This document shows, in pieces, positions 18,984 through 24,883 of a stretch of 64,000 nt of DNA. Positions within the stretch are counted from its first letter, which is position 1. Each line of letters begins with the position of its first letter. Where the stretch lies: contig CAZIVR010000005.1 of NCBI GenBank assembly GCA_964542745.1, forward strand, positions 9,142 to 73,141, written 5' to 3'. The notes below the pieces were generated by a model, which saw nothing but the letters and a program-made list of their open reading frames with translations, had not been told where the DNA came from and did not search any database. The position numbers and the translations under genes are program-made. Origin of the DNA: an uncultured bacterium. GTDB taxonomy: Bacteria > Eisenbacteria > RBG-16-71-46.

Positions 18984-19958
18984 ATGCCCACGATGACCAT
19001 GGTGCAGGCCATCCAGGACGGCCTGCGCGTCGCGCTGCGCGAGGACCCCCGGGTCGTGGTGCTGGGCGAGGACGTGGGGCTCAACGGCGGCGTTTTCCGC
19101 GTCACCGAGGGGCTGCAGGCCGAGTTCGGCGCGGACCGCGTCGCCGACACGCCGCTCGCCGAGAACGGCATCGTGGGCGCGGCGATCGGCATGGCCCTCT
19201 ACGGCATGCGCCCGGTCGCCGAGATCCAGTTCGTGGACTTCATCTACCCGGCCTTCGACCAGATCGTCTCGGAGCTCGCCAAGCTCCGCTGGAGATCGGC
19301 CGGCCAGTACGCCTGCCCGGTGATCGTGCGCGCGCCCTACGGGGGCGGCATCAAGGGCGGCCTCTACCACTCGCAGAGCCCCGAGGCGTACTTCTGCCAC
19401 ACGGCCGGGCTCAAGGTGGTGATCCCCTCGACCCCCTCGGACGCCAAGGGCCTGCTGCTCGAGGCGCTCGCCGGCGAGGACCCGGTGATCTTCCTCGAGC
19501 CCAAGCGCCTCTACCGGAGCGTCAAGGAGGAGGTCGCCGAGGGGCGCTTCACGGTGCCGATGTCGAAGGCGCGGATCGCGCGGGCCGGCGAGCACGTCAC
19601 GCTGCTCGCCTACGGCGCGATGGTGCCGGTCGCGCTCGAGGCCGCCGGGCAGGCCGCCGAACGGGGCTGGTCCGCCGAGGTGGTGGACCTGCGCACGCTG
19701 GTGCCGCTCGACGCCGAGACCATGCTGGAGAGCGTGCGCAAGACCGGCCGGGTGGTGATCGTGCACGAGGCCCCGCGCACCTGCGGCTACGGCGCCGAGC
19801 TCTCGGCGCAGATCGCCGAGCAGGCGCTCACCTCGCTGCTCGCTCCGGTGCTGCGCGTGACGGGCTACGACACGCCGTTCCCCTACACGCTCGAACACTC
19901 GTACCTGCCCGACGCGCCGCGCGTGCTGCGCGCGATCGAGCACGTGATGAGCTACTGA
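18984..19958 (+). CDS. 2-oxoacid (pyruvate/branched-chain/acetoin) dehydrogenase E1 component beta subunit
   Basis: It is 324 aa with a transketolase-like pyrimidine-binding domain (FRVTEGLQAEFGADRVADTPLAE). GAGGAG lies upstream. Confidence 0.85.
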   Translation: MPTMTMVQAIQDGLRVALREDPRVVVLGEDVGLNGGVFRVTEGLQAEFGADRVADTPLAENGIVGAAIGMALYGMRPVAEIQFVDFIYPAFDQIVSELAKLRWRSAGQYACPVIVRAPYGGGIKGGLYHSQSPEAYFCHTAGLKVVIPSTPSDAKGLLLEALAGEDPVIFLEPKRLYRSVKEEVAEGRFTVPMSKARIARAGEHVTLLAYGAMVPVALEAAGQAAERGWSAEVVDLRTLVPLDAETMLESVRKTGRVVIVHEAPRTCGYGAELSAQIAEQALTSLLAPVLRVTGYDTPFPYTLEHSYLPDAPRVLRAIEHVMSY

Positions 19959-20260
19959 TGCTGGTGCTGGTCTGGGAATACCGGGTGCGCCCGGAGCGGG
20001 TCGAGGAGTTCGAGGCGTTCTACCGCCCCGACGGGCCGTGGGGCTCGCTGTTCCGCAACGCCCCGGGCTTCGTGAGCATCACGCTCATGAAGGACCTGAA
20101 CGACCCGGCGCGCTTCCTGGTCGCCGACCGATGGACCGGCGAGACCCTCTACGAGGAATTCAAGCGCGGCCACGCCGCCCAGTATTTCGACCTGAGCGCG
20201 CGCGGCCGTCGGCTCTACGAGCGCGAGACCGAGATCGGCCGCTTCGACTTCCTGGAATAG
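19958..20260 (+). CDS. antibiotic-biosynthesis-monooxygenase (ABM/Dabb) domain protein
   Basis: It is 100 aa with a ferredoxin-like ABM fold pattern. Its ATG overlaps the E1beta stop (TGATG). Confidence 0.7.
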   Translation: MLVLVWEYRVRPERVEEFEAFYRPDGPWGSLFRNAPGFVSITLMKDLNDPARFLVADRWTGETLYEEFKRGHAAQYFDLSARGRRLYERETEIGRFDFLE

Positions 20261-20271
20261 ACCGAGGAGCC

Positions 20272-23753: not shown

Positions 23754-23785
23754 ACGCGGCGGCGCCGCCGCCCGAGGGAGACCCG

Positions 23786-24883
23786 ATGACCGAAACGCTG
23801 CGCGTGCTGGATGCCGACGGGAAGCTGGTGGGCGAGGCCCCCGAGGTTCCCGGGGACGACCTCGTCGCCATGCTGCGCCACATGGTCCGGATGCGCACGC
23901 TCGACGTGCGCATGCTGTCGCTCCAGCGGCAGGGCCGCATCGGCTTCTACGGCACCGCGACCGGGCAGGAGGCGGCCGTGACGGGCTCGGCGTACGCGCT
24001 GCGCCCGCAGGACTGGGTCTTCCACGCGCTGCGCGAGACCGGCGTGTGCCTGTGGCGCGGCACCACGGTGAAGGAGCTGGTGTGCCAGCTCATCGGCAAC
24101 TCGGGCGACGTGCTGATCGGCCGCCAGATGCCCATGCACTTCAGCGACCGGCGCGTGCGGTCCGTGGCGTGGTCGAGCGTGATCGCGACCCAGCTCCCCC
24201 ACGCCATGGGCGCCGCGTGGGCGGCGAAGCTGCAGAAGAAGGACGAGGTGATGATGGGCTACATCGGCGACGGCGGCACGTCGTCGGGCGACTTCCACGC
24301 CGCCCTCAACTTCGCGGCGGTGTTCCGGGTCCCCGCGGTGTTCTTCTGCCAGAACAACCAGTGGGCGATCTCGGTGCCCCTCTCCCGCCAGACGCGCTCG
24401 GAGAGCCTCGCGGTCAAGGCGGTGGCCTACGGCATGCCGGGCGTGCGGGTGGACGGCAACGACCTGCTCGCGGTGATCGCGGCCACCCGCGAGGCGGTGC
24501 GCCGCGCGAGCGCGGGCGGTGGCCCGACCTTCATCGAGGCCGTCACGTTCCGCATGGGCGGCCACTCGTCGAGCGACGACCCCACCCGCTATCGCGACAA
24601 GGAGCTGGTCGCCGAGTGGGAGCGGCAGGATCCCGTGAACCGGCTGCGCGCCTACCTGCGCGCGGAGGGACTGCTCGCGGACGGCACCGAGGAACGCTGG
24701 GTCGAGGAGGGCAACGCCGAGATCACCGCCGCGATCGCCGAGGCCGAGGCGCTTCCCCCTCCCGGCATCGAGACCATGTTCACCGACGTCTACGCCGAGA
24801 TGCCGCCCCACCTCGCCGAGCAGATGCGCTACGCGGTGGCGATGGGCGAGGGCACGAAGTTCGAGGGGGCGTTCCCGCTCTAG
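23786..24883 (+). CDS. 2-oxoacid dehydrogenase E1 component alpha subunit (TPP-dependent)
   Basis: It has the TPP motif GDGGTSSGDFHAALNFAAV...FFCQNNQWAIS. GAGGGAG lies upstream. Confidence 0.85.
   Translation: MTETLRVLDADGKLVGEAPEVPGDDLVAMLRHMVRMRTLDVRMLSLQRQGRIGFYGTATGQEAAVTGSAYALRPQDWVFHALRETGVCLWRGTTVKELVCQLIGNSGDVLIGRQMPMHFSDRRVRSVAWSSVIATQLPHAMGAAWAAKLQKKDEVMMGYIGDGGTSSGDFHAALNFAAVFRVPAVFFCQNNQWAISVPLSRQTRSESLAVKAVAYGMPGVRVDGNDLLAVIAATREAVRRASAGGGPTFIEAVTFRMGGHSSSDDPTRYRDKELVAEWERQDPVNRLRAYLRAEGLLADGTEERWVEEGNAEITAAIAEAEALPPPGIETMFTDVYAEMPPHLAEQMRYAVAMGEGTKFEGAFPL

Follow-up and report, generated by a model that had tools for sequence, protein, structure and literature searches.

The closest described counterparts of the enzyme system treated here are the E1 components of the Thermus and human branched-chain 2-oxoacid dehydrogenases (BCKDH; PDB 1um9 and 1dtw) and the pyruvate dehydrogenase (PDH) of Geobacillus stearothermophilus (1w85, 3duf), systems with the gene order E1alpha-E1beta-E2(-E3). 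The same three catalytic parts, with all of their domains, are encoded by an operon in a stretch of 64,000 nucleotides (hereafter the window) from an uncultured bacterium of the lineage Eisenbacteria, RBG-16-71-46 (assembly GCA_964542745.1, contig CAZIVR010000005.1, positions 9,142 to 73,141). The thiamine pyrophosphate (TPP) motif GDG...NN, the lipoyl-lysine motif DKA and the E2 motif DHRxxDG of the described complexes are all present. The operon differs from those systems in its order, E1beta...E2...E1alpha, in the presence of two unrelated genes, and in the absence of an E3 among the parts of the window that were scanned.

The first of the two additional genes codes for a 100-residue protein that has the ferredoxin-like, single-domain ABM fold of about 100 residues in common with LsrG, TT1380, SnoaB, PA0709 and YgiN. 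In contrast to these, it is at most 21% identical to characterized members and forms a tight family of its own, confined to one lineage and one genomic position. The second codes for an S9A prolyl oligopeptidase (POP) with the same propeller, hydrolase domain and Ser/Asp/His residues as the enzymes of Myxococcus xanthus (2bkl), Sphingomonas capsulata (1yr2) and Aeromonas (3iuj), which it matches over the full length with 423-530 bits. Unlike these enzymes, it has a 50-residue N-terminal extension with a predicted signal peptide, and its gene lies inside a dehydrogenase operon with a start codon that overlaps the E2 stop codon. The locus is probably an inherited E1beta-E2-E1alpha operon in which the ABM and POP genes were gained and lost independently of each other, POP being a co-transcribed passenger.

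Origin of the gene order

Species genomes of GTDB were scanned with an alignment of E1alpha, and the five proteins of the window were mapped onto the 80 loci returned; collected loci carry labels of the form L001. The canonical order E1alpha-E1beta-E2 occurs in the more distant relatives, which are actinobacteria, Firmicutes, Phycisphaerales and haloarchaea. Many Planctomycetota, Gemmatimonadota, Kofleriaceae and Thermoplasmata metagenome-assembled genomes (MAGs) have a second alpha gene after E2, giving E1alpha-E1beta-E2-E1alpha' (Table 1), and no description of such clusters was found in the literature searched. These clusters (e.g. L018, L024, L032, L034 and L049) have the E1beta-E2-E1alpha' core of the window in the same orientation; compared with them, the window lacks the upstream E1alpha and has the ABM and POP genes in addition. 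An insert-free E1beta-E2-E1alpha order is present in the Eisenbacteria-like locus L012 (partially in L011 and L013) and in the Myxococcota locus L033.

The tree built from 103 E1alpha copies places the window protein among those that lie downstream, after E2. At least its eight nearest neighbors included no upstream-type copy in 74 of 100 bootstrap replicates, which is moderate, not strong, support. All trees were built by neighbor-joining on sequences derived from high-scoring segment pairs. The window E1alpha would be the orthologue of the downstream E1alpha copy in the four-gene clusters of other phyla, and E1beta-E2-E1alpha appears to be the four-gene cluster minus its first gene, its order having been inherited. 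An earlier reading of this stretch, made from its letters without database searches (the sequence-only reading), had described the operon as scrambled. This description was rejected on the evidence of the insert-free loci L012 and L033 and of the grouping of the E1alpha with downstream copies. Literature searches on the order of E1alpha and E1beta genes returned nothing relevant.

Unrelated genes spanning 2-5 kb stand between E2 and the downstream E1alpha in three Myxococcales loci (among them a sigma-54 activator with FHA domain, a protein combining GYF and AIM24, and several open reading frames (ORFs) without a Pfam match; Table 1), and therefore the E2|E1alpha' junction tolerates inserts in other lineages too.

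Several further arrangements were seen among the collected loci. The downstream-type E1alpha also occurs as a solitary gene, without E1beta or E2 within 9 kb (e.g. L015-L017, L019 and L030). In L050, L054 and L057 (Bipolaricaulota/Acetothermia and Thermotogae) E1alpha is followed by a tandem pair of E1beta genes, and there is no match to E2 nearby. Locus L012 (DATLUU010000144.1) is labeled Verrucomicrobiia and yet is syntenic with the Eisenbacteria loci at 60-83% identity in the genes for Nramp, the Fe-repressor, E1beta, E2 and E1alpha; it may be mis-binned.

Recurrence and insertion site of the peptidase gene

The best named relatives of POP, ABM and E1alpha are Candidatus Eisenbacteria MAGs. 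The five-gene order of the window is identical in L001, where identity to the window is 94% for E1beta, 83% for ABM, 80% for E2, 74% for POP and 89% for E1alpha. The order E1beta-E2-POP-E1alpha is found in L002-L005 and L104, and E1beta is 87-94% identical to that of the window in L001-L004. A metagenome scan with a POP alignment yielded ten more contigs with E2-POP-E1alpha or the visible parts of it (partial in L094-L098, L101, L103, L110 and L119), in which POP is as little as about 51% identical to that of the window. Counting the window, the E2-POP-E1alpha arrangement is thus on record from 16 independent contigs. With 15 contigs besides the window, it cannot be put down to chance or to faulty assembly.

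The 4-nt overlap of E2 stop and POP start is conserved in both POP sequence groups, with the exception of L098, which has a 14-nt gap. In POP-less loci (L011-L013, L090, L092 and L093) a GGAGAC-type sequence stands before an xTGA in which the E2 stop and the E1alpha start overlap. Where POP is present, this GGAGAC..xTGA context is found in front of POP instead, and the spacer before E1alpha contains a similar GGAGAC...ATGAC. This shared context therefore suggests that the initiation site ancestrally used by E1alpha was taken by POP.

At the same chromosomal site, eight loci have the dehydrogenase genes without POP and four have POP alone. In the latter (L102, L105, L109 and L127) POP lies between the Nramp/Fe-repressor genes and the LysM/fn3 genes; E1beta, E2 and E1alpha are gone, with no remnants visible and no room for any. 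That each exists without the other at the same site argues against POP and the dehydrogenase being an obligate functional unit. In the POP tree the in-operon copies fall in one clade, with the four POP-alone copies nested among them; the POP-alone copies group together in 100% of bootstraps, and with the second in-operon group in 82%. In the E1alpha tree the POP-less loci L010-L012 cluster with the group of the window (88.5%).

ABM protein

The databases hold 158 homologues of the ABM protein, nearly all of exactly 100 residues and 64-87% identical to the window protein, and an alignment of 42 sequences has 26 invariant columns, many of them charged. In every context looked up, i.e. the window and six loci (L090-L093, L174 and L001), the gene lies between E1beta and E2. 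Five of the six (L090-L093 and L174) have the order E1beta-ABM-E2-E1alpha, without POP and with the E2 stop overlapping the E1alpha start. A hidden Markov model of the family found no other match among all ORFs of the 174 collected loci.

The ABM gene is cleanly absent from L003, L004, L012 and L104, where E2 follows E1beta within 5-10 nt. In L002 the 83-nt gap between E1beta and E2 (6662-6744) retains the first ~24 codons of a decayed ABM gene (MHVRVWEDRVRPERVEEFETFE...); this remnant documents directly that ABM was lost here through an internal deletion. Because the gene is lost or decayed in L002-L004, L012 and L104 with the dehydrogenase genes intact, ABM is dispensable to the complex. It appears to have been lost several times within the lineage and to be the older and wider of the two inserts.

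The AlphaFold2 model of the ABM protein (pLDDT 96.4) has the beta-alpha-beta-beta-alpha-beta topology of the generic ABM fold. Foldseek aligned it with LsrG, TT1380, the Nitrosomonas ABM protein, PA0709 and SnoaB (probability 1.0, TM-score 0.7-0.8, identity at most 21%), and a PDB sequence search gave marginal matches only (HmoB and MhuD, E-values 0.16-0.27). At this level of identity, no activity or catalytic residues appear transferable from characterized members. LsrG and PA0709 act on, or are modified by, alpha-dicarbonyl compounds. The haem-degrading IsdG of S. aureus has the catalytic triad Asn-Trp-His (N7, W67 and H77). A comparison by eye with these residues places W6-E7-Y8, with no Asn, in the N-terminal strand of the window protein, and W59 and H71 at generic ABM spacing. 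A haem-degrading or quinol-monooxygenase role, as homologue names in some sources would have it, was rejected as unsupported, the sequence matches having E > 0.01. Literature searches for ABM proteins with 2-oxoacid dehydrogenase operons returned nothing relevant.

Operon organization

Gene frames were called by the GC content of third codon positions (GC3), which is 0.94-0.98 in all called frames; the G+C content of the window is about 75%. The junctions in the order E1beta/ABM/E2/POP/E1alpha are -1, +11, -4 and +32 nt. The TGA of E1beta and the ATG of ABM have one base in common (TGATG), and the TGA of E2 overlaps the GTG of POP, reading GTGA. A divergent intergenic region of 292 nt flanks the five genes upstream, and a convergent spacer of 115 nt flanks them downstream. 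The latter folds at -65.7 kcal/mol (z = -2.9) and contains a GC-rich hairpin (Table 1), likely a transcription end or an mRNA-stabilizing structure, which has no T-run and was therefore missed by the consensus terminator scan. Consensus promoter and terminator scans of positions 18400-25300 gave no site, including none inside the operon, a result that says little at 75% GC. No Rfam family matched anywhere in the window, i.e. no known leader or riboswitch. The five genes probably form one transcription unit, as their spacing and the flanking spacers suggest.

The sequence-only reading had all five genes right to the base in identity, position and order, as judged by Pfam and the GC3 frames, and its tight co-oriented unit is bounded by the divergent spacer and by the hairpin in the convergent spacer. 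The synteny that it proposed to look for recurs in relatives, and the 15 further contigs do not show the genes as separate units. Its argument from translational coupling holds for operon membership and does not extend to functional integration: among same-strand neighbor pairs in the window 14 of 32 overlap by 4 or 1 nt by the GC3-based gene calls, and because of this the stop/start overlaps show operon membership and little more.

Dehydrogenase subunits

E1alpha (PF00676) and E1beta (PF02779 and PF02780) are carried on separate genes, as in a heterotetrameric (alpha2beta2) E1. The TPP-binding motif of E1alpha (pattern GDG-X(24-27)-NN), G161-D162-G163...N190-N191, is invariant in all five aligned sequences, and the lipoyl motif DKA (in MTDKAS) and the catalytic DHRVVDG, which conforms to DHRxxDG, are both seen in the translation of E2. 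The best solved relative of E1beta is the beta subunit of the Thermus thermophilus 2-oxo acid dehydrogenase (416 bits; PDH 369 bits), which we take to be a BCKDH. E1alpha scores 286 bits against human BCKDH E1alpha, 262 against the Thermus protein and 255 against Geobacillus PDH, and the best solved relative of E2 is the Geobacillus PDH E2 (300 bits). The E1 type is within the clade of branched-chain 2-oxoacid dehydrogenases and Gram-positive-type pyruvate dehydrogenases. All NCBIfam equivalogs stay below their cut-offs, including the PDH equivalogs for E1beta and E2; E1alpha reaches 408.2 bits with the PDH E1alpha equivalog TIGR03181, 3 bits short of its cut-off of 411.35. Because the equivalog scores all fall short, the complex cannot be assigned securely to either PDH or BCKDH. 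These scores and the mixed PDB similarities do not separate PDH, BCKDH and acetoin types. Among the 40 window proteins scanned with Pfam there is no Pyr_redox-type gene that could code for an E3.

Prolyl oligopeptidase

POP consists of the beta-propeller PF02897 and the alpha/beta-hydrolase PF00326 (252 and 182 bits), the domain pair of S9A peptidases. Its best solved relative is the M. xanthus prolyl endopeptidase (PEP) 2bkl, matched over the full length with 529 bits, residue 4 of which aligns to residue 52 of POP. Against the oligopeptidase B equivalog NF007511 it scores 166 bits, far from the cut-off of 1313. The catalytic motifs are invariant in all five aligned sequences: GGSNGG with S570, GDSDTRV with D651/D653, and G687-H688. 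The triad positions were set by motif and by the Ser-Asp-His spacing that we assume for M. xanthus PEP.

The predicted Sec signal peptide has an n-region with R4, R5 and R8 and an h-region from A9 to G25 with a 10-residue Kyte-Doolittle maximum of 2.54. By a heuristic test A29-R30-A31|S32 fits the -3/-1 rule, which predicts cleavage after A31. A hydrophobic-cored N-terminus is found in 110 of 120 POP homologues, whatever their genomic context, and in all in-operon and POP-alone copies the N-terminal 37-55 residues are hydrophobic-cored with high GC3. A Met directly before the mature domain (residue 56) is present in the window and in L001-L004; the second in-operon group reads TPVAVVRDTL or TRVAVVRDTL at this place, with Val or Ala at the position of the Met, so that half of the in-operon POPs lack it. 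The preference of the sequence-only reading for the signal-peptide start over this internal ATG is therefore supported by the conserved, E2-overlapping start and hydrophobic N-terminus. A periplasmic peptidase is not odd as such, given the 110 homologues with a hydrophobic N-terminus, and signal-bearing, periplasmic bacterial POPs are well documented (PMC4522959). The signal peptide appears to be family-wide and ordinary, and the protein is probably exported.

On a 148-kb metagenome contig, three tandem POP paralogues that are 45-46% identical to the window POP were seen (L142, 5501-12094).

Divergent spacer and neighborhood

The divergent spacer contains a palindromic element (Table 1) that is the sole AT-rich patch in a 75% GC region. 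Of the 11 related loci examined, 10 have it, POP-alone loci among them, and it is thus retained whatever genes lie on the plus side; in L090 it is the perfect palindrome TTAGCCTAGGCTAA. The consensus from the upstream spacers of the window, L001-L004, L012, L090, L093, L102 and L105 is approximately TTAGCCTAGGCTAA-N8-12-TTTGTCAAGGCTAA. The element is likely an operator/promoter region shared with the upstream operon of a DtxR/MntR-type repressor and Nramp, and it is possible that it is a metal-dependent operator for one or both of the divergent units. Downstream of the operon are LysM and fn3 proteins, followed by a type IV pilus cluster. Among the scanned proteins of the operon and its neighborhood there is no peptide or amino-acid transporter, aminotransferase or acyl-CoA dehydrogenase.

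Table 1. Features of the window and gene arrangements in collected loci. Positions are those of the window unless a locus is named.
Feature	Position or locus	Strand	Description
Nramp metal transporter fused to a C-terminal universal stress protein (Usp) domain	13449-15515	-	Fusion in all related loci
DtxR/MntR-family repressor with FeoA domain	15512-16189		Co-oriented with Nramp-Usp
Protein without Pfam match	16209-17417		Co-oriented with Nramp-Usp
Di-haem DHOR oxidoreductase	17414-18691		Co-oriented with Nramp-Usp, divergent from operon
AT-rich palindromic element TTAGCTACGGCAAAT-N7-TTTGTCAAAGCTAAT	18783-18822	.	Divergent intergenic region
E1beta	18984-19958	+	324 aa; Transket_pyr 148 bits, Transketolase_C 136 bits (Pfam); GAGGAG Shine-Dalgarno before ATG
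ABM protein	19958-20260	+	100 aa; PF03992 32.1 bits, cut-off (gathering threshold) 23.1; ATG
E2	20272-21546	+	424 aa; Biotin_lipoyl, E3_binding, 2-oxoacid_dh (Pfam); GAGGAG inside 11-nt gap before start
POP (S9A prolyl oligopeptidase precursor)	21543-23753	+	736 aa; Peptidase_S9_N, Peptidase_S9 (Pfam); GTG start
Predicted Sec signal peptide of POP	21543-21635 (residues 1-31)	+	N-terminus MNPRRDPRAGAAFAALLAVAGAVAGPPSARA|SA; n-, h- and AxA-type c-region
E1alpha	23786-24883	+	365 aa; E1_dh 308 bits (Pfam); GAGGGAGA Shine-Dalgarno in 32-nt gap upstream
GC-rich hairpin	24937-24959	.	10-bp stem, 3-nt loop; convergent spacer 3' of E1alpha
Type IV pilus cluster	29250-41516	+	PilT-like and PilB-like ATPases, PilC, pilins with N-methylation motif, PilM, prepilin peptidase (40728-41516)
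PPC-domain/FlgD-Ig secreted protein	45541-49584		1347 aa
S10-like carboxypeptidase	51536-53104
E1alpha-E1beta-E2-E1alpha' clusters	L014, L018, L024, L025, L028, L032, L034, L035, L036, L045, L046, L048, L049, L052, L055
Myxococcales insertions between E2 and E1alpha'	L043 4215-8813; L047 7201-8897; L053

Proposed course of events and alternatives

An ancestor with E1alpha1-E1beta-E2-E1alpha2 would have given rise to a lineage that keeps the downstream alpha gene only. The 100-residue ABM-fold protein would have been the first insert, placed between E1beta and E2 within this lineage. The gene of the periplasm-targeted POP would have followed as the second, exactly at the overlap of E2 stop and E1alpha start, taking that initiation site, while E1alpha would have gained a new ribosome-binding site 32 nt downstream. 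The five genes would be read from a promoter region in the divergent spacer. E1beta, E2 and E1alpha would assemble in the cytoplasm as a lipoate-dependent 2-oxoacid dehydrogenase with an E3 encoded elsewhere, and POP, exported by Sec, would work apart from the complex, in the envelope, where it would trim proline-containing oligopeptides. What POP would gain from its position in the operon is co-expression and nothing mechanistic, at most a loose regulatory tie between peptide scavenging and the oxidation of amino-acid-derived 2-oxoacids. Such a loose regulatory link stays plausible because Eisenbacteria MAGs are summarized as protein- and peptide-oriented in a preprint (bioRxiv 10.1101/2025.11.25.690425, citing Zhong et al. 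2022).

The POP distribution is most simply read as a single insertion, after which either POP or the dehydrogenase genes were lost several times; the identical insertion point is the main argument for this. Two independent insertions were judged less likely, given that both groups have this insertion point and the overlapping start. The POP tree by itself would also be compatible with two.

Several observations weigh against an inherited operon with a passenger peptidase. All in-operon and POP-alone POPs are monophyletic in only 24% of bootstraps of the POP tree, and the POP-bearing loci are monophyletic in 0 of 200 on the E1alpha tree. POP has been kept in the operon at 51-74% identity with its coupled start, a retention that might be longer than expected of a purely neutral passenger and would be compatible with selected co-regulation. 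The substrate signal appears mixed, E1alpha pointing to human BCKDH, E1beta to Thermus and E2 to Geobacillus PDH. A promoter may lie within the E2 coding sequence, and, as seen from the 64-kb window, an upstream-type E1alpha, an E3 or a second POP may lie elsewhere in the genome.

The persistence of the arrangement down to ~51% POP identity, with its coupled start, is also what a selected catabolic module would predict, in which POP would cleave proline-containing oligopeptides in the envelope for import and deamination and the dehydrogenase would oxidize the resulting branched-chain 2-oxoacids, a peptide-to-acyl-CoA unit. The E1 subunits score best against BCKDH-type structures, and the protein and peptide orientation reported for Eisenbacteria MAGs in the summary of the above preprint would fit. 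We consider this module, which the sequence-only reading had put forward, unlikely: either partner is dispensable at the locus, relatives having the dehydrogenase only or POP only at the same site; the neighbors belong to metal homeostasis, LysM/fn3 proteins and a type IV pilus, with no catabolic or transport genes; and E2 scores best against a PDH E2. An annotation or assembly artefact, with POP starting at the internal Met as a cytoplasmic protein or with a chimeric contig, is very improbable. That Met does stand directly before the mature domain in the window and L001-L004, and one database gene call (P0004) starts there, but it is absent from the second in-operon group, the 37-55 codons upstream of it combine high GC3 with a hydrophobic core in all loci, POP-alone loci included, most homologues have a hydrophobic N-terminus of this kind, and the arrangement recurs on independent contigs.

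A somewhat slimmer chance than that of the catabolic module is given to ABM as a true accessory component, which would either dock on E1beta/E2, as a small subunit or chaperone, or act as an enzyme on the 2-oxoacid or a dicarbonyl substrate before E1. The near-constant length and strong conservation of its 158 homologues, its tight junctions, and its invariable place between E1beta and E2, with no family member elsewhere in the ORFs of the 174 loci, are in its favor, as is the presence of the dicarbonyl-linked LsrG and PA0709 among its structural neighbors. Its clean loss from four loci and decay in L002 show that it is not essential to the complex, its identity to characterized ABM proteins is at most 21%, and all of its contexts come from one lineage with conserved synteny, where the linkage could be historical. 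If it were an accessory, the ABM-containing operon would be a new functional variant and POP would be incidental. The chance is similarly small that ABM is a dedicated, lineage-specific accessory of the E1beta/E2 core (a small docking subunit, or an enzyme preparing a non-standard 2-oxoacid or a dicarbonyl substrate) and that, at the same time, E1alpha2 is a substrate-specificity variant of a system in which other phyla would pair two alternative alpha subunits with a single beta subunit and a single E2; together these would make an undescribed functional class of 2-oxoacid dehydrogenase. The inherited operon with separately gained and lost inserts is retained as the probable explanation.

Implications

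The locus is a real and conserved operon, a lineage-specific variant in gene order. Its enzyme system is one already known, here in a phylum about which little is known, and does not represent a system of a new kind; that the POP insertion itself reveals new biochemistry is unlikely. For annotation, an E1alpha that stands apart from E1beta and E2 is not to be taken as an orphan or as part of a pseudogene cluster, and the origin of E1beta-first operons is traceable. Translational coupling in high-GC genomes is to be used with caution as a guide to function. For the evolution of operons, a single chromosomal site offers a clean natural series of five forms, in which ABM and POP are each present or absent, or POP stands alone. 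In this series a secreted enzyme would have entered the operon of a cytoplasmic complex through a pre-existing overlapping start, without an obligate functional link. The leads for biochemistry are the highly conserved ABM protein wedged between E1beta and E2 and the two-alpha-subunit clusters of other phyla.

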